Origin: Pseudomonadota bacterium
GTDB lineage: Bacteria; Pseudomonadota; Gammaproteobacteria; Burkholderiales; JAKAFK01
Assembly (NCBI GenBank): GCA_021817985.1
Contig: JAKAFK010000003.1
Span: forward strand, 7,136-71,135
Length of the DNA: 64,000 nucleotides
Reading direction: 5' to 3'
Positions 209-7,227 of the stretch are shown here, piece after piece. Under the pieces are notes generated by a model. It ran no database searches. It saw nothing but the letters and a program-made list of their open reading frames with translations, and was not told where the DNA came from. A program made the position numbers and the translations under genes. Position 1 is the stretch's first letter, and each line of letters starts with the position of its first letter.

Positions 209-662
209 CGGGGTTCACCCAAGGCGCCGATCAACACCACCCCGTCGCCGGTGGGCTCGAACGGCGTTCGGCGCCCCCCAAAAAGCGGGAAAACATTCGG
301 ATTCCACCGCCCGGGAGTGCGTCCGCAAAAGCCATGGCGAAGGCCTGCGCGCGGTTGCAGCCGTCCCGTTCCGCCAGTAGGTTTCGGACACGAGTCTTCG
401 CGGTTTCCCCGCCGCGGGCAAGCAACGCCCCGAATTCTCCTTTGGTCCTTCCCTCTCAAAGCCGCCTGTGACCCGAGCAACTTGGCCGGGCCCATCGCCC
501 GTTGGCAGCGCGGAATATTCGACCCGCTTCTGACCCAATGCGTCACGCTCCGCACCGTCAGGACGCGATCGTGCCGATGTCTGGGTAGCAGATGGCTTGT
601 AGGCGTCAGCCTCGTGTCATGTCCCGTAGGACTTCCTGAACCGACAGTATCTTCTCTGTATG

Positions 663-707
663 TTGCACACGCCGCCTTACCATGTCATAATACGAATCAT
701 TCGTATT
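663..707 (+). promoter_or_regulatory. Sigma70 promoter overlapped by a Fur-box-like 9-1-9 palindrome upstream of hemP
   Basis: TTGCAC (663-668) - 17 nt - CATAAT (686-691); perfect inverted repeat AATACGAAT-C-ATTCGTATT (689-707) with Fur-box 9-1-9 geometry, directly upstream of an iron-related operon. Confidence 0.7.
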
Positions 708-721
708 TACGTTAGATACCC

Positions 722-904
722 ATGAAGAATCCAGACAATTCGTCAACTCGCGAGAAGGAGCGGCGTGACCCGATCATGGACCGCGACGTGACGATCCGAA
801 GCGAGACGCTGTTTGCCGCCGGAGACGAAGTATTGATCGACCATCAAGGGCAGCATTACCGCCTGCGGCGCACGCGCGCAGGAAAGCTCATCCTCACGAA
901 GTAA
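722..904 (+). CDS. hemP: Hemin uptake protein HemP/HmuP family small protein
   Basis: 60 aa with SETLFAAGDEVLIDHQGQHYRLRRTRAGKLILTK, the HemP signature (YRLRxTxxGKLILTK). Confidence 0.9.
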   Translation: MKNPDNSSTREKERRDPIMDRDVTIRSETLFAAGDEVLIDHQGQHYRLRRTRAGKLILTK

Positions 905-1051
905 GGGTGATTCTTTCCATCTGCTGCACCGGCAGATGGAAACATGACCTGACCGCGCCGCTTCCCGCGGCCCGCCACCGTATCCAGCCAGCCAGCCAGC
1001 CCCGGGCAAGCCAGCCATCTTTTTTTGGGACCGACTTGCCAGGAGATCATC

Positions 1052-2521
1052 TTGCGGAACCCCTCTTCCGATCAATTCGAGGCTGGCGGATCGGCGCTCC
1101 TCACGCGACAGCCCTGGACCTTGCTCGCCGCGTTGGTCCTGTCGTGCGTGTGGGCCAGCCCAGCCTGCGCCGCGCCACCGCCCATGAGCGTGCCTGCCGG
1201 CGAAACCTTCCATGCGGGCCCGGGCGGATGCGGGCAGGAAATCCTTCGGGGCCTCGCGCACAGCACCAACGTTCTCGGCAGCCTGTGCGGACTGCGTCCT
1301 TTCCTCGGCCGATACGGCATCTCTCTCGGACTCACGGAAACCAGCGAGTTCCTCGGAAACGTGGGCGGCGGCACCCGGAAGGGGTTCGCCTACGACGGAC
1401 TCACCACCCTCGTCCTCCAGATGGATACCCAGCGCGCGTTCGGCTGGTATGGGGGGACGCTCGACGCCAGTGCGTTGCAGATCCATGGTCAGAACTTGAG
1501 CGCGCAAAATCTCCAGACCCTGCAGACCGCGAGCGGCATCGAGGCCGACCGGGGCACGCGACTTTGGGAGCTGTGGTACGACCAGCGCTTCTTCGGCGAC
1601 GGCCGGCTTGATCTGAAGCTGGGCCAGCAAAGCCTCGACCAGGAATGGATGGTGAGCCAGGACGCACTGTCCTTCGTCAACACCATGTTCGGCTGGCCCA
1701 TGCTGCCTTCGGCCGACCTGCCCGGGGGCGGTCCCGCCTATCCCCTGTCCGTCGTCGGGGCGCGGTTGCGCGCGCGGGCCAGCGACGCCTGGACGCTTCT
1801 CGCCGGGGTCTACAACGGCAGCCCCGTCGCCGACAACACCGGCGACCCGCAGCAGCAAAATGCCCACGGGACGAGCTTTCCACTGCACGGAGGCGCTCTT
1901 GCGATCCTGGAAGCGCAGTACGCCTACCCGGCACTGGGAACGATGCTCTACGCCGGTGGGTCGGAGCCGCTGGCGCGCGTCTACAAGATCGGCATGTGGT
2001 ACGACAGCGAGAATTTCAACGACCAGGCGTTCGACGACCGGGGGCTGTCGCTCGCGAACCCTGCGAGCAGCGGCAGCCCCAAGGCCCATCGCGGCAACTG
2101 GGCCCTGTATGCCGTGGCGGACCAGATGATCTGGCAAAGCGCCACGGAACCCGACCGAACCGTGAGCCTCTTCCTCCGGCCCATGTGGACGCCGCTGGCC
2201 GATCGCAACGAGATCGATCGCAGTGTCAACGCCGGCGTTACGGTCCATGAACCGTTCATCCACCGTGACGACGACACGTTCGGACTGGGACTGGGCTACG
2301 CACATGTGAGTTCCCGTCTCGTTGCGCTCGACCGCCGAGAGGGGTATCGCGCGCATCACGCCGAAACGTTCGTCGAAGCCACCTACCAGTATCAGGCCAC
2401 CCCCTGGCTCCAACTGCAGCCGGATCTTCAGTACGTGTTCCACCCAGGCGCGGGCATCACCACCGTGCGACCGGTCAACAACGAAACCGTAATAGGCCTT
2501 CGCGCCAACGTCACCTTCTAA
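1052..2521 (+). CDS. OprB-family (carbohydrate-selective porin family) outer-membrane porin
   Basis: LWELWYDQ, LDLKLGQQSLDQEW, ETFVEATYQYQATPWLQLQPDLQYVFHPG and C-terminal Phe; N-terminal signal peptide; start set at TTG 1052 behind AGGAG (1041-1045), longest ORF starts at 1025. Confidence 0.85.
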   Translation: MRNPSSDQFEAGGSALLTRQPWTLLAALVLSCVWASPACAAPPPMSVPAGETFHAGPGGCGQEILRGLAHSTNVLGSLCGLRPFLGRYGISLGLTETSEFLGNVGGGTRKGFAYDGLTTLVLQMDTQRAFGWYGGTLDASALQIHGQNLSAQNLQTLQTASGIEADRGTRLWELWYDQRFFGDGRLDLKLGQQSLDQEWMVSQDALSFVNTMFGWPMLPSADLPGGGPAYPLSVVGARLRARASDAWTLLAGVYNGSPVADNTGDPQQQNAHGTSFPLHGGALAILEAQYAYPALGTMLYAGGSEPLARVYKIGMWYDSENFNDQAFDDRGLSLANPASSGSPKAHRGNWALYAVADQMIWQSATEPDRTVSLFLRPMWTPLADRNEIDRSVNAGVTVHEPFIHRDDDTFGLGLGYAHVSSRLVALDRREGYRAHHAETFVEATYQYQATPWLQLQPDLQYVFHPGAGITTVRPVNNETVIGLRANVTF

Positions 2522-2531
2522 GGAGAACGCC

Positions 2532-3707
2532 ATGACGCCACCCCCGACCCGTGCGCCCCGCCGCGCAAGCCCAATGCAGGCCCACGCGCTCGCGGCCCTG
2601 CTGGTGCTATCGCTCCTTTCGCCAACAGGTGCGGATGCGGCCGACTCACCCTATCTCGGATCGATCCATCGACACGCGATGCTCGCCAGCACGACGCCCC
2701 CGAACGGCGACGGCAATCCCTATGCCGTGGTGGTGGCGCCCGTCTCCGCAGGAAAGATTCACAAGGACGACGTGCTGGTCACCGACTTCAACAACGTCTC
2801 GAATCTTCAGGGAACCGGAGGCACCATCGTCGACTACCGACCCGCCACCCGGCAGACCACGATTTTCGCGACCCTGCCCCAGCATCTCCCGCAATGTCCG
2901 GGCGGCATTGGGTTGAGCACCGCCATGACCATGCTCAAGAGCGGCTGGGTGATTGTTGGAAGCACCCCGAGCACGGACGGAACAACGAGCACGCTCGGCA
3001 AGGGGTGCCTGCTCGTGCTCGACCCCAACGGAAAAGTCGCGACGGTCTGGTCCGACCCAGAGATCGACGACCCGTGGGGAAACATGGCGACCATAGACAA
3101 GGGAAACCGCGCCACCCTTTTTGTCAGCATGTCCGGCTTCGGCGTCCCCGCACTTGACGTCCTCGATCCGAAGAGCGCTGTCCCGGTCACGGTCCGCAAG
3201 GCAACCGTATTGCGTATCGACCTGTCCATCCCCCGGGGCAAGCCGCCGGTGATCACCCATGAAACGGTCGTAGCCAACGGCTTCGGCCAACGCGCGGACC
3301 GCGACGCCTTTCTCATCGGGCCGACCGGTATCGCGCTGGCTTCCGAGGGCACGCTGTATGTGTCGGATGCCTTGGCGAACCGAATCGCCGCGATCGATGA
3401 CGCCGCCACGCGCACGACGAGTGCCGGCCTGGGACGCACGGTGACCGAAGGTGGGCTGCTCAGACGTCCCCTGGCCATGACCATGACCCCGGACGGCGAC
3501 CTCCTCGTCACCAACGGGAACAACGGACAAGTTGTCGAAGTCAACCCCGCGGCCGGCAAACAGCTTGCGGCTCAATGGATCGACGCCGACGAGGCGCAGT
3601 CGCCCCCAGGCAATCACGATCTGTTCGGGATCAGCATGGCGCCGGACGGCAAGGGATTTTATTACGTCGAGGACGACGTCAACACGCTCATGGAGGCGAC
3701 GCGATGA
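2532..3707 (+). CDS. Secreted hypothetical protein with NHL/beta-propeller-like repeats
   Basis: Signal peptide (ALAALLVLSLLSPTGADA); repeated blade-like motifs GNPYAVVV, DDPWGNMA, IGPTGIAL..LYVSD, RRPLAMTMTPDGDLLVTN; AAGGAG RBS; 10 nt after porin stop. Confidence 0.7.
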   Translation: MTPPPTRAPRRASPMQAHALAALLVLSLLSPTGADAADSPYLGSIHRHAMLASTTPPNGDGNPYAVVVAPVSAGKIHKDDVLVTDFNNVSNLQGTGGTIVDYRPATRQTTIFATLPQHLPQCPGGIGLSTAMTMLKSGWVIVGSTPSTDGTTSTLGKGCLLVLDPNGKVATVWSDPEIDDPWGNMATIDKGNRATLFVSMSGFGVPALDVLDPKSAVPVTVRKATVLRIDLSIPRGKPPVITHETVVANGFGQRADRDAFLIGPTGIALASEGTLYVSDALANRIAAIDDAATRTTSAGLGRTVTEGGLLRRPLAMTMTPDGDLLVTNGNNGQVVEVNPAAGKQLAAQWIDADEAQSPPGNHDLFGISMAPDGKGFYYVEDDVNTLMEATR

Positions 3708-5053
3708 ACACAGAAGACAGACGGTCCGGACGGTCACGACGGGCCTTCTTCAAGAGCACAGCCGCGTTGGCCGCGGCCACCGGCGCGGGGCTGGTCGCCG
3801 GCCCCGCAGGGCAGGCACTGGCAGCCGACCCGGCCGTGGGGGGGCATGCGGATGGTTCCGCCATCGAGCCGTTCTGGGGCGTCCATCAGGGCGGAATCGC
3901 GACGCCCCCGCAGCGCCACGTCTACTTCGCGGCCTTCGACCTGAGCACGTCCCAGCGAAGCGACGTGGCCGCGATCCTCGAGGCTTGGACGGCCGCCGCA
4001 TCCCGGATGAGCCGCGGCGAAACGGCCGAACCCCGGGAGGCGGGGTTGCGCACGGCCACTAGTCCGACCACCGAGGATTCGCGTCCCGGGTACGCGGCGC
4101 CGCCCGCCCCTGGGGCGGGCGGCGATACCGGGGAGGTCATGGGCATGACGCCCCATCGCCTCACCGTCACCTTCGGCTTCGGTCCCAGCCTGTTCGTCAA
4201 GGACGGCAAGGACCGCTATGGCCTCGCGGCGAGGCGCCCGGAGGCCCTGGCGGACCTCCCGCCCTTTCCGGGCGACCAACTGGTTGAAACCCACAGCGGC
4301 GGCGATCTTTGCGTTCAGGCCTGCGCGGACGACCCGCAAGTGGCCTTTCACGCGGTGCGACAACTCGCGCGCATCGCCTCCGGCAGCGCGCAGATCCGCT
4401 GGGCGCAGACGGGCTTTCTGCCGGATGTTCCACCCGGACAGGCGGCACGCAATCTGATGGGCTTCAAGGACGGCATCATGAATCCGGCTCCCCACCAAAT
4501 GGACCCATTCGTCTGGATCGGCGCTGGAGGGCCGGACTGGTTGCGCGGGGGCAGTTATCTCGTGGCGCGGCGCATCCGCATCGCGCTTGAGCATTGGGAC
4601 AGCATGCGGGTCGCCTTTCAGGAGCAGGTGGTCGGGCGGCACAAATTGAGCGGCGCGCCCCTGGGCCAGAACCGGGAATCGGCTCCCCTGGACCTCGACG
4701 CGAAAGACCAGGACGGAAATCCGATCATTCCGGAAAATGCCCACGTGCGCCTCTCGGCGGCCGCAGCCAATGGGGGTGCCGTGATCCTGCGGCGGGGCTA
4801 TTCCTACAACAATGGGGTCGACCTCACCGCAGAACGCTGGCCCCCCTGGCGCGAAGGTCTCGAATACGACGCGGGCCTTCTCTTCCTCGCCTTTCAGCAG
4901 GACCCGCGCACCGGCTTCATCCGAATCTTCGACAAGGTGTCGCGGTTCGATATGATGAACCAGTTCGTGACCCACGTCGGCAGCGCGCTTTTCGCCTGCC
5001 CCGGGGGTGCAACGCCAGGCGAGTTCATCGGACAACGCCTGCTGGAAGGATAG
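3704..5053 (+). CDS. efeB: Tat-exported DyP-type peroxidase, EfeB/deferrochelatase-like
   Basis: Tat motif SRRAFFK; NLMGFKDG (GxxDG), HVRL proximal His, ILRRGYSY distal Arg; ATGA overlap with upstream gene. Confidence 0.85.
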   Translation: MNTEDRRSGRSRRAFFKSTAALAAATGAGLVAGPAGQALAADPAVGGHADGSAIEPFWGVHQGGIATPPQRHVYFAAFDLSTSQRSDVAAILEAWTAAASRMSRGETAEPREAGLRTATSPTTEDSRPGYAAPPAPGAGGDTGEVMGMTPHRLTVTFGFGPSLFVKDGKDRYGLAARRPEALADLPPFPGDQLVETHSGGDLCVQACADDPQVAFHAVRQLARIASGSAQIRWAQTGFLPDVPPGQAARNLMGFKDGIMNPAPHQMDPFVWIGAGGPDWLRGGSYLVARRIRIALEHWDSMRVAFQEQVVGRHKLSGAPLGQNRESAPLDLDAKDQDGNPIIPENAHVRLSAAAANGGAVILRRGYSYNNGVDLTAERWPPWREGLEYDAGLLFLAFQQDPRTGFIRIFDKVSRFDMMNQFVTHVGSALFACPGGATPGEFIGQRLLEG

Positions 5054-5056
5054 CTT

Positions 5057-5097
5057 GGCGGACCGCCGCTCCGAACGGGGCGTGGGGCGGTCCCGCC
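5057..5097. terminator. Long GC-rich hairpin after efeB (possible terminator or stabiliser between convergent units)
   Basis: GGCGGACCGCC-GCTCCG-AA-CGGGGC-GTG-GGGCGGTCCCGCC; no clear U-tract. Confidence 0.35.
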
Positions 5098-5402
5098 CGC
5101 GAATTGACCGCTCGCATCACCATGGGGCGCGGGGAATTGGCTGGCGGCCCCGGCAGGGCGCCACAACCGGCTGCCCGATCTGCCGGGATGAAAGTCAAGC
5201 GGCCCACGTTCCCTGGAGGTCTTCGGTGATGCCACCCGCGCACGGCTCTCCGGCGGGTGCGATGGGGGAACTCCTCTTCCTCCATGGGCTGTGTCTCGAG
5301 CGTATGCGGCCGGGAGGAACGCCTGAGCCGACGCGCTCTTGACGCCCTCTCAAGGGGGCCGAGGGGACCGGCCCTGCGGTTTCCTGCGATGGGCTCGCGG
5401 CC

Positions 5403-5882
5403 TCAGTGAGCGTGGCCGTGCGGCCCATGGATGTGGCCGTGGGCCACTTCTTCGGCCGTCGCCGCGCGCACCTCTTCGACCTGACACGTGATGGCGAGCG
5501 TCTGCCCCGCCAGCGGGTGATTCGCATCCACCACGACCTGCCCGTCGGCGATGTCGGTCACCGTGTAGATCATGACGTCGTCGGAGTTTTCCGCCGCGCC
5601 CTCGAACTGCATCCCGACGCTGATGTTTTCCGGAAAAGCCTCGCGTGCCTCCACCCGGACGAGTTCCGCATCATACTCGCCGAAGGCATCCTCGGGCGGC
5701 AGTTCGACCTGCAGACTGTCCCCCACACCCTTGCCTTCCAGCGCAGCTTCCAGCGCCGGGAAGATGCCGTGATAGCCGCCATGCAGGTACGCCACCGGCT
5801 CGGCGCTTTTTTCCAGTACTTTTCCGCTCTTGTCGCTCAATTCATAGCTGATCGAGACGACGGTGTCTTTGCCAATTTGCAT
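5403..5882 (-). CDS. slyD: FKBP-type peptidyl-prolyl isomerase SlyD
   Basis: YLHGGYHGIFPALEAALEGK, DANHPLAGQTL, His-rich tail HGHIHGPHGHAH. Confidence 0.95.
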   Translation of the reverse strand: MQIGKDTVVSISYELSDKSGKVLEKSAEPVAYLHGGYHGIFPALEAALEGKGVGDSLQVELPPEDAFGEYDAELVRVEAREAFPENISVGMQFEGAAENSDDVMIYTVTDIADGQVVVDANHPLAGQTLAITCQVEEVRAATAEEVAHGHIHGPHGHAH

Positions 5883-5885
5883 GGG

Positions 5886-6353
5886 TTACCTCAATTCCTT
5901 GATCAATTTCAGGACTTCCGCCGCATGGGCCTTGGCATTCACGCCGTAGAGCGCATGACGCACCACACCTTGCTTGTCGATGATGAAGGTGGAGCGCACG
6001 ATCCCCAGGCGCTTGACCCCTTCCTTTTCCTTCTCTTGCAGCACGCCGTACAAGGTGGAGACTTCCCCCTCGGAATCGGCGAGCAGCCGCACGGCTAGCC
6101 CATGCTTGTCGCGGAAGGCCGCGTGGCTGATGCAATCATCCCGGCTGACCCCAAGCACGACCGTGTCATGCTCCGCGAATTCGTCCTCCATGTCGCTGAA
6201 CTCGATCGCCTCGAGCGTGCACCCGGGTGTATCGTCTTTTGGATAAAAATACAGCACAACGTGTTTCTTCTTCTTGAAGTCAGACAGTTGCAGCATTTCC
6301 ATATCCGCGTCCGGCAATGCGAAATCCGGCGCAACCTGCCCCGCTTGCAACAT
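5886..6353 (-). CDS. bcp: Peroxiredoxin (Bcp/PrxQ family)
   Basis: VVLYFYPKDDTPGCTLEA, RSTFIID. Confidence 0.9.
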   Translation of the reverse strand: MLQAGQVAPDFALPDADMEMLQLSDFKKKKHVVLYFYPKDDTPGCTLEAIEFSDMEDEFAEHDTVVLGVSRDDCISHAAFRDKHGLAVRLLADSEGEVSTLYGVLQEKEKEGVKRLGIVRSTFIIDKQGVVRHALYGVNAKAHAAEVLKLIKELR

Positions 6354-6456
6354 AGCCGCTCCTCAATGACCACACTGAATTTTATTCAAGTTCCAGGTCC
6401 TTTCAAGTTAAATTCTGCGCCCGCCGCGGGCCTCCAGAAAAACCCTCGCGCGCGCC

Positions 6457-7227
6457 TCACGCCGAAATCTGGCGCCAGCCGAAACCGGCTGTCTGATCGG
6501 CGCAGCCCACCCATTCCAGCGCACACCCCAGTGCGCCCGCCAGCGCGGCGCGCGCCAGCTCAGGCGTGTTGTTCTCTTCGCTCAAGTGCGCCGCGACAAC
6601 ATGCTGCAACCGGCTTTGGTCGAGACTCGCAAGCAGGCTCGCTGCGGCCGCGTTGTCGAGATGGCCGAACCGGCCCGAGATCCGCTCTTTGAGCGTGGGC
6701 GGATAGCTGCCGCCACGGAGCATGCCCAGGTCATGGTTGCACTCCAGCACGAGAGCATCGCAACGGCGCAAGACGGCCCCGATGTGAGCGGTCACGCACC
6801 CCGCATCGGTAAGAACCCCCAAGCGCCTGGCCCCATCGCCCAGGACATATTGCACGGGCTCCCGCGCGTCGTGCGGCACCGGAAACGGCTCGATCTCGAT
6901 GTCGCCGAGCCGGAAACGCTGATGAATGTCCACGAGATTGAAATCGGGAAGATCCGAATAGGCCGCCTGAAGGGCCGCCACCGTCCCATGGGTCGCCCAT
7001 ATCGGCAGCGCATATTTGCGCGCCAAGCGGATGGCGCCCGATGCATGGTCCCCGTGTTCGTGTGTGAGCAAGATCCCGGTCAGCGCCTGGGGCGTCAGAC
7101 CGAGGCGAGCGAGCCGGGCGCTCGCCTCCGCGAGGCCGAAACCGCAATCCACCAGGACGCCGCTGGCGCCGCATTGGACGACCAAAGCGTTGCCCCGGCT
7201 GCCGCTGCCGAGGCTTGCAAAACGCAT
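6457..7227 (-). CDS. MBL-fold metallo-hydrolase (YycJ/WalJ-like)
   Basis: SLGSGSRGN, THEHGDH, VPHDAREP, LECNHD, GHLDN, AHLSEENN. Confidence 0.9.
   Translation of the reverse strand: MRFASLGSGSRGNALVVQCGASGVLVDCGFGLAEASARLARLGLTPQALTGILLTHEHGDHASGAIRLARKYALPIWATHGTVAALQAAYSDLPDFNLVDIHQRFRLGDIEIEPFPVPHDAREPVQYVLGDGARRLGVLTDAGCVTAHIGAVLRRCDALVLECNHDLGMLRGGSYPPTLKERISGRFGHLDNAAAASLLASLDQSRLQHVVAAHLSEENNTPELARAALAGALGCALEWVGCADQTAGFGWRQISA

Follow-up and report, generated by a model that had tools for sequence, protein, structure and literature searches.

The stretch of DNA analysed here, called the window in the following, comprises 64,000 nucleotides (nt) of a 3.97-Mb genome that is 96% complete and originates from a mine drainage habitat. 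Between positions 663 and 5053, it carries an operon for a small HemP/HmuP-family protein, an OprB-type porin, a secreted propeller protein and a haem peroxidase of the DyP family with a predicted export signal for the twin-arginine translocation (Tat) pathway. The genes for the last three proteins, referred to as the triad, recur together in many other bacteria. The elements of the operon are as follows.

664–691, plus strand: sigma-70-like promoter, consisting of TGCACA (664–669), a spacer of 16 nt and CATAAT (686–691) with a TG before the -10 element; 9/12 in a consensus scan
689–707, no strand assigned: AATACGAATCATTCGTATT, an operator of the Fur-box type whose perfect 9-1-9 palindrome reaches into the -10 element
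722–904, plus strand: gene for a small protein of the hemP/hmuP family, 60 amino acids (PF10636, E 1.1e-18, 67.2 bits vs. a cut-off of 25)
1052–2521, plus strand: gene for an OprB-family outer-membrane porin with a signal peptide; likely start codon TTG at 1052 behind AGGAGA, reading frame open from 1025
2532–3707, plus strand: gene for a secreted six-bladed NHL/SGL propeller of 391 amino acids with a signal peptide (NHL repeat, E 2.5e-8)
3704–5053, plus strand: gene for a Tat-exported A-type (EfeB-like) DyP haem peroxidase of 449 amino acids (PF04261 and PF20628; twin-arginine motif SRRAFFK)

An earlier inspection of the nucleotide sequence without database searches (the sequence-only reading) had recognised a perfect 9-1-9 palindrome across the -10 element, followed by hemP and three tightly coupled envelope genes in an operon closing after the peroxidase gene. 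This layout was confirmed throughout: the palindrome extends over the CATAAT element, the porin and propeller genes are separated by a gap of 10 nt containing GGAGAA, and the start codon of the DyP gene overlaps the propeller stop codon in an ATGA at 3704–3707. Because the next two open reading frames (5403–5882 and 5886–6353) are located on the minus strand and converge on the DyP gene, the latter marks the end of the operon. Promoter and operator are contained in the intergenic region 209–721, which lies 3' of an upstream open reading frame.

Judged from its domains and motifs, the peroxidase is an A-type (class I), EfeB-like and Tat-exported enzyme. Besides both Pfam domains of DyP enzymes and the twin-arginine motif, it contains a GFKDG sequence (the GXXDG distal motif) and a proximal histidine in NAHV, which align with those of PDB entry 7pkx. 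With the family model TIGR01412 ("iron uptake transporter deferrochelatase/peroxidase subunit"), it scored 418.2 bits vs. a cut-off of 428. The structure matches were PDB 7pkx with 322 bits, Streptomyces DtpA with about 255 bits and E. coli EfeB/YcdB (2y4f) with 167 bits, and the closest solved enzymes, such as 7pkx, were labelled "deferrochelatase/peroxidase" by their depositors. The porin matched PF04966 over the entire profile (positions 1–372 of 372, 285.8 bits, E 9e-85) and showed a distant relationship to OprB of Pseudomonas (PDB 4gey, 52 bits). The inspected triad porins share an APPPxxVP motif in front of the OprB barrel, which is found at residues ~50–80 of the 498-residue reading frame in the window and also in the second porin of the same genome (on contig C106, see below) and in the related loci L040, L047, L058, L075 and L077; in both porins of the host genome, it is followed by a cysteine-containing GPGGCGQE segment. 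In the periplasm, the propeller or the DyP may dock to this N-terminal extension.

The propeller has more than 4800 homologues, and none of the best 120 (65–85% identity) carries a functional annotation, most of them being called "hypothetical protein" and four bearing generic propeller names. It did not reach the cut-off of any NCBIfam family, and its score with the SGL profile (20.1 bits) stayed below the cut-off of 26.3. An AlphaFold2 model (pLDDT 79.6, pTM 0.81) presented a six-bladed NHL/SGL propeller, whose nearest neighbours in Foldseek were the NHL domains of TRIM71 and Brat, SMP30, strictosidine synthase, streptogramin lyase and xylonolactonase with target-normalised TM-scores of 0.65–0.79. 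Like Foldseek, a profile search against the PDB returned generic NHL/SGL propellers alone and provided no functional lead. About 110 positions were invariant in a 20-sequence cross-phylum alignment, including an N-terminal H-R-H, a QCPGG, a Met-rich TAMTM motif and many Asp, Asn and Glu residues; H46, H48, C122, M132, D256, D258, D279, N328, E336, D363, E380 and D381 are among these positions.

Conservation of the triad and its second copy

A pattern scan with one genome per species detected relatives in at least 391 species; 80 loci were fetched, and adjacency was counted from tblastn searches with the four proteins of the window against these loci. The porin, propeller and DyP genes lay side by side in an unchanged order in 71 of the 80 loci; of the remaining nine, four were truncated at a contig end or parsed incorrectly. 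The propeller-DyP pair was present in 78. The carriers belong to the Alpha-, Beta- and Gammaproteobacteria, Verrucomicrobia, Acidobacteria, Planctomycetota and Eremiobacterota/Ca. Baltobacteraceae, hence to at least six phyla, and almost all are represented by metagenome-assembled genomes from peat, bog, acid soil, lichen or mine drainage. Across these phyla, the triad proteins are 50–85% identical, and in an order-level survey of 60 relatives (one from the own genus and 59 from other families), the propeller was found only in the genus-mate and in one other family. Such identities over phylum borders, combined with a patchy distribution, indicate horizontal spread under strong constraint.

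By this comparison, the conserved unit is the triad of porin, propeller and DyP and not the four-gene set. The association of the DyP with porin and propeller partners proposed by the sequence-only reading was thus borne out by synteny, whereas its inclusion of hemP in the module had to be given up: among the 80 loci, hemP precedes the triad in the window, its closest relative (L001) and L004 and in none other, and a 38-residue remnant occurs at the second copy in the host genome. HemP is a lineage-specific accessory protein with a probable regulatory role.

The most frequent neighbour of the triad is a Cupredoxin_1 protein (PF13473), whose gene adjoins it in 30 of the 80 loci. At least 13 of these 30 also contain a gene for an FTR1 permease (PF03239) alongside the cupredoxin, directly up- or downstream and once fused to it. 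Other neighbours are bfd-bfr (seven loci), TonB-dependent receptors (five) and katG (three); neither the cupredoxin nor FTR1 is adjacent in 50 loci. The neighbour analysis revealed neither sugar-related genes in any of the 80 loci, the neighbours being propeller, DyP, cupredoxin/FTR1 and bfd-bfr, nor ligand-related genes conserved beside the triad, and FbpABC-like genes were adjacent in none of them. We also found no consistently adjacent inner-membrane transporter in loci or genomes without FTR1.

A second triad is present in the host genome at positions 1–7100 of contig C106 (locus L081), where the operator is followed by the 38-residue hemP remnant (...HPVRLTRDGKLVVTKK), bfd, bfr and the porin, propeller and DyP genes. 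Identities to the respective proteins of the window are 82% for the porin, 81% for the propeller and 72% for the DyP. This copy is flanked by a DDE_5 transposase fragment and a fragment of an IS110-family transposase, which gives it the appearance of an acquired island. The six triad genes, three in each copy, are all intact, and the pairwise ratios of nonsynonymous to synonymous substitution rates (dN/dS), including the comparisons with L001, range from 0.12 to 0.31; both copies are under purifying selection.

The operator and other putative control elements

The operator at 689–707 consists of the arms AATACGAAT and ATTCGTATT around a central C and forms a perfect inverted repeat. Perfect 9-1-9 palindromes are not rare in this genome, with two in the window and 65 in total, three of the 65 being A/T-rich. 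This operator stands far above a chance match because its position is kept, its changes are symmetric in paralogous and orthologous promoters, and it recurs in 39 related loci. The aligned operators of the other hemP-type promoters read AATGCGACTCATTCGCATT in L001, AATGCGACTCATTCCGATT on C106 and AACGCGAATGGGTCGTATT in L004, and a CATAAT -10 element upstream of the operator is found in L001 and the C106 copy as well. Where the left arm varies between A and G among the four promoters, the right arm varies correspondingly between T and C, which fits a binding site for a dimeric protein; in a longer alignment (CATAATACGAATCATTCGTATT in the window, CATAATGCGACTCATTCGCATT in L001, CATAATGCGACTCATTCCGATT on C106 and ..CAACGCGAATGGGTCGTATT in L004), the flanks are not conserved.

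The site agrees with the Fur box of Caulobacter crescentus, a gel-shift-verified 19-bp sequence of the 9-1-9 type (ATTGCGAAT-N-ATTCGCAAT) represented by sites such as ATTGCGAATAATTATCATT, ATTGCGACGCACTCGCAAT and CATGCGAATGGCTCGCAAC (PMC2724300). The operator of the window fits the register AATGnnAATnATTnnCATT with two mismatches, and the symmetric dinucleotides are its sole difference from the E. coli-type Fur palindrome; its "CG core" is normal for such boxes rather than a departure, since the verified Caulobacter sites match it. Applying this register with up to three mismatches to the 500 nt around the porin starts of related loci, we obtained 51 matches in 39 of 71 loci, corresponding to 1.43 per kb vs. 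0.041 per kb elsewhere in the loci (35-fold enrichment), with typical sites reading AATGCGAATCATTTGCATT, AATGCGAGTCATTCGCATT and ATTGCGAGTTATTCGCAAT. Even many of the boxes counted as background are located in the porin-propeller spacer or before bfd, cupredoxin/FTR1 genes, a receptor gene or an unannotated gene for a 700-residue protein. Judged by its resemblance to the Caulobacter sites verified by electrophoretic mobility shift assays and by this enrichment 5' of the porin gene, the operator is a Fur-type box, as the sequence-only reading had assumed, and iron-dependent repression of the promoter is well supported by comparison.

A further near-perfect Fur box (e.g., AATGCGAATTATTCGCATT) was seen 40–80 nt 5' of the propeller gene in L032, L034, L037, L048, L053, L059, L076, L079 and other loci. 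Boxes in this position suggest a second promoter in loci with a long porin-propeller gap, where the propeller-DyP pair may be under its own iron-regulated control.

Scanning the host genome itself yielded strong sites only at the two triad promoters and weak ones before acnB-like and Rrf2-like genes, and no large Fur regulon could be defined from these scans. The classical E. coli Fur consensus GATAATGATAATCATTATC, applied to the same genome with up to six mismatches, recovered no meaningful regulon either and was discarded in favour of the register given above. Two proteins of the Fur family are encoded in the genome. A half Fur/Mur box (AATGAGA) was noted at an NRAMP gene on contig C31 (19301–20480, locus L085), where a TTGACA-17-CATAAT promoter is followed by AATGAGACGTATTCTTATA; this gene is a candidate for a co-regulated inner-membrane Fe2+/Mn2+ route.

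Apart from promoter and operator, two predicted hairpins are associated with the transcript.

914–942, plus strand: hairpin with a perfect 13-bp stem in the hemP-porin spacer (free energy -24.3 kcal/mol, z -5.45) without a U-run behind it
5053–5100, plus strand: G+C-rich hairpin past the DyP stop codon, a weak terminator candidate (free energy -30.7 kcal/mol, z only -1.35)

The consensus scan returned no terminator at the locus, and an Rfam scan of the window gave zero RNA families. The hairpin at 914–942 starts straight after the hemP stop codon, and its counterpart in L001 (~6377–6403) keeps the stem with changed letters. It may act as an intercistronic attenuator or as an element for RNA stability or processing that sets the expression ratio of hemP to the triad. 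Relatives of HemP/ChuP reportedly act as post-transcriptional regulators (PMC9131926). We also observed a leader (AGCCAGCCAGCC ... C(C/T)CGGGC(A/G)AGCCAGC ... T-run) that is conserved just 5' of the ribosome-binding site of the porin gene in the window (~985–1035), in the C106 copy (L081, ~2350–2400) and in L001 (~6440–6480). This leader is kept despite different genes upstream, namely hemP in the window and bfr on C106.

Iron uptake genes of the host and of other carriers

The sequence-only reading had pointed out that EfeU and EfeO are missing beside the DyP gene, and this absence extends to the whole host genome. Neither FTR1 (PF03239) nor M75 (PF09375), the domain of EfeO, gave a profile match there; control genomes were positive for FTR1, and a tblastn search with the FTR1-cupredoxin protein of L037 was also blank. 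A true FeoB and a cupredoxin partner were likewise not found. Because the genome is devoid of FTR1, its triads are plainly independent of EfeU. Three NRAMP transporters are encoded. The operon contains no gene for a TonB-dependent receptor, in agreement with the sequence-only reading, and for the genome this does not hold, since two such genes are present away from the operon. One of them is preceded by a cobalamin riboswitch (RF00174, 106.7 bits; contig C52 6478–6734, equivalent to 279–535 of locus L087), which leaves the genome very poor in siderophore-type receptors. An operon on contig C175 (16100–26130, locus L084) codes for a TonB-dependent receptor, ExbB, TonB, a type I phosphodiesterase, an FbpA-like binding protein, a fused double permease and an ATPase of the ATP-binding cassette (ABC) type, and is a candidate importer of ferric iron or of an organophosphorus compound. 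On this inventory, the two Fur-boxed triads likely represent a major part of the iron acquisition capacity of the host.

The two absences differ when other carriers are considered. All of 50 carrier genomes contain an EfeB-like DyP, and 38 of them (76%) contain FTR1, which is absent from the other 12, so the missing EfeU is a trait of particular lineages. The carriers for which no FTR1 was detected include a cultured one, Novosphingobium sp. Fuku2-ISO-50, whose triad is located at L077. M75/EfeO was detected in just four of the 50 genomes, and its absence from 46 makes the lack of EfeO general. A permease in most carriers, M75 in very few and a propeller in all of them is the pattern expected if the propeller took over the role of M75. 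Homologues invariably accompanied by FTR1 or EfeO, a situation that would point to simple decay in the host, were not observed, since an adjacent cupredoxin with or without FTR1 is confined to the 30 loci mentioned above and even the genomes are partly devoid of FTR1.

Several known systems resemble the triad in part. EfeUOB of E. coli O157 and Nissle, EfeUOB (YwbLMN) of B. subtilis and EfeUOB/M of Pseudomonas syringae (PMC9174327) share with it the Tat-exported A-type DyP, predicted Fur control and the tie to acidic conditions where Fe2+ is stable, and about a third of the triad loci add a Cupredoxin_1 protein and sometimes FTR1. In contrast to EfeUOB, the triad contains the propeller and a dedicated OprB-type porin as fixed partners in place of M75/EfeO, its associated cupredoxin is a separate small protein and not fused to M75, and the permease is optional. 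The host locus thus has the EfeB part and misses EfeU and EfeO, the two defining parts of that system. FtrABCD of Bordetella, Brucella and Burkholderia (PMC11966278, PMC5681537) is also directed at Fe2+, and an FTR1-family permease and an FtrB-like cupredoxin flank the triad in many relatives. However, P19/FtrA and FtrD were not seen beside the triad, the host genome is devoid of any Ftr part, oxidation by the triad would use a haem DyP instead of a copper protein, and the porin and propeller have no Ftr counterpart. The hemP/hmuP-led haem operons, such as Yersinia hemPRSTUV, those of Burkholderia and Stenotrophomonas hemP-hemA (PMC9241770), share a Fur-box promoter, a HemP gene in first position and a role in outer-membrane uptake; unlike them, the operon of the window codes for a diffusion porin, a propeller and a DyP and for neither a TonB-dependent haem receptor nor HmuSTUV. 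Finally, Slr1908 and Slr1841 of Synechocystis are OprB-family barrels proposed as outer-membrane entry for inorganic iron (bioRxiv 10.1101/2021.01.14.426630; PMC9705863), but they possess SLH domains, are major structural proteins of the outer membrane and are not encoded together with a DyP or a propeller. Full-text searching of the literature brought up no account joining EfeB/DyP with OprB porins or NHL propellers as a module. From its gene content, the triad is best described as an undescribed architectural variant of the Efe/Ftr class.

Proposed function and its alternatives

We are fairly confident in the broader claim that the operon codes for an iron-regulated envelope module for iron acquisition. 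For the more specific proposal of a Fur-repressed, porin-fed and Efe-like front end with ferroxidation by the DyP and hand-over by the propeller, we see an even chance of being correct. Under iron-replete conditions, Fe2+-loaded Fur would bind at 689–707 and occlude the -10 element, blocking RNA polymerase, and upon iron scarcity, hemP and the triad would be expressed. The porin would let Fe2+, a soluble and stable ion under the acid conditions in which all carriers live, enter the periplasm by diffusion without energy from TonB, and the DyP would oxidise it to Fe3+ at the expense of peroxide, as reportedly done by the ferroxidase EfeB of B. subtilis. The propeller would stand in for the absent EfeO/M75 by binding iron in the periplasm or handing it over. 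In roughly one out of three carriers, the adjacent cupredoxin, partly together with FTR1, would complete an EfeUOB-like pathway; in the host genome, the triad would feed another inner-membrane importer, with the FbpABC-like ABC transporter on C175 and the three NRAMP proteins as candidates. An outer-membrane entry of this kind has a parallel in the OprB-type porins implicated in cyanobacterial iron uptake by the studies on Synechocystis cited above, cyanobacteria being the sole group for which the searched literature ties such porins to iron.

A number of points weigh against this proposal. The ferroxidase role of EfeB is debated against a deferrochelatase role (PMC3577903), Fe3+ produced by the DyP could not be imported by the NRAMP proteins of the host, and the FbpABC-like transporter, encoded beside a phosphodiesterase, may have a different substrate. 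No metal site is recognisable in the propeller, and its matches are to a generic fold, many of them enzymes. Mine drainage is usually rich in iron, which makes the need for a high-affinity iron system less obvious. Within the host genome, the operator is convincing only at the two triad promoters, complemented by the half-site at one NRAMP gene, and this restriction would also allow for a dedicated regulator. The three metatranscriptomes of the source mine-drainage study contained no reads at 218–6500 and are uninformative either way.

Following the deferrochelatase role suggested for EfeB/YfeX of E. coli and FepB of S. aureus, the module might alternatively extract iron from haem, with the porin admitting haem or a small haem-like chelate, the DyP acting as deferrochelatase, the propeller handling haem or porphyrin and HemP serving as regulator. 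We consider this unlikely, even if hemP (PF10636) heads the operon, the nearest solved DyP structures are deposited under the deferrochelatase label, HemP/HmuP/ChuP proteins control haem uptake genes (PMC9241770, PMC9131926) and haem-iron use driven by FepAB has been reported (PMC3577903). With its occurrence limited to the window, two related loci and a remnant, hemP lies outside the conserved logic of the module, and the frequent partners, cupredoxin/FTR1 and bfd-bfr, handle ionic iron. The carriers are free-living in acid soil and peat, where free haem is no obvious resource, OprB channels are narrow and of sugar size, and haem normally requires a TonB-dependent receptor. Another explanation is oxidative iron release, in which small Fe(III) complexes with phenolic, humic or carboxylate ligands would enter through the porin and the DyP, with or without a lactonase- or lyase-like propeller, would destroy the ligand and set the iron free in the periplasm. 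Phenolic and lignin-derived compounds are known substrates of DyP enzymes, the fold neighbours of the propeller include SMP30 lactonase, strictosidine synthase, streptogramin lyase and xylonolactonase, peat, bog and humic acid soils are the habitats of the carriers, and regulation by iron would fit as it does for Fe2+ uptake. Nevertheless, this explanation appears improbable to us: the triad has no conserved ligand-related neighbours, the A-type/EfeB clade is the DyP class of iron transport and not of lignin chemistry, and the sequence matches of the propeller to catalytic families do not rise above noise.

A protective function, in which the module would clear peroxide and Fe2+ from the periplasm and thereby limit Fenton damage in Fe2+-rich acid water, could be suspected from the iron-rich mine drainage habitat, the consumption of H2O2 by the DyP, the adjacent katG in three loci and the iron storage gene bfr in several. 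With a Fur box covering the -10 element, repression is to be expected at high iron, which is the opposite of what detoxification needs, a dedicated porin admitting the toxic ion makes no sense for defence, and the link to the FTR1 importer indicates uptake; we regard this function as quite improbable. Hardly any credence is left for the alternative already offered by the sequence-only reading, namely that an efeUOB-like operon lost its permease and is now decaying without any function. The absence of FTR1 and M75 from the host genome and the position of the second copy between transposase fragments would suit it, but two intact gene sets with dN/dS values of 0.12–0.31, the retention of operon and operator in the closest relative (L001), which is also without FTR1, and the distribution over the carriers, 50 of the 80 loci having no adjacent cupredoxin or FTR1 and 12 of the 50 genomes no FTR1 at all, led us to reject it.

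Returning to the Efe-like front end, we rate a more far-reaching version as somewhat less likely than not. The propeller would be a new periplasmic iron-handling protein that replaces M75/EfeO in a non-orthologous manner and, together with the OprB-type porin and the EfeB peroxidase, would form a self-contained, TonB-independent and peroxide-driven entry module, which would have spread horizontally through at least six phyla of acid-soil, peat and mine-drainage bacteria and would provide the main iron route in genomes that, like that of the host, are poor in siderophore receptors.

EfeUOB-type systems are the main known bacterial route for ferrous iron uptake at low pH. In the triad, which occurs in the genomes of at least 391 species, EfeB is retained, an unrelated and extremely conserved propeller would stand in for EfeO, and a dedicated porin is added. 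Nature has thereby set up a "swap" experiment that bears on the task of the partner of EfeB in the periplasm, and the triad supplies a candidate for the outer-membrane entry of Fe2+. It assigns a context to a propeller family of several thousand proteins without functional annotation and suggests that annotations as "OprB carbohydrate porin" can mask porins for metal uptake. For the communities of peat, bog and mine drainage, where iron cycling affects carbon storage, the triad would offer a testable marker of iron acquisition.

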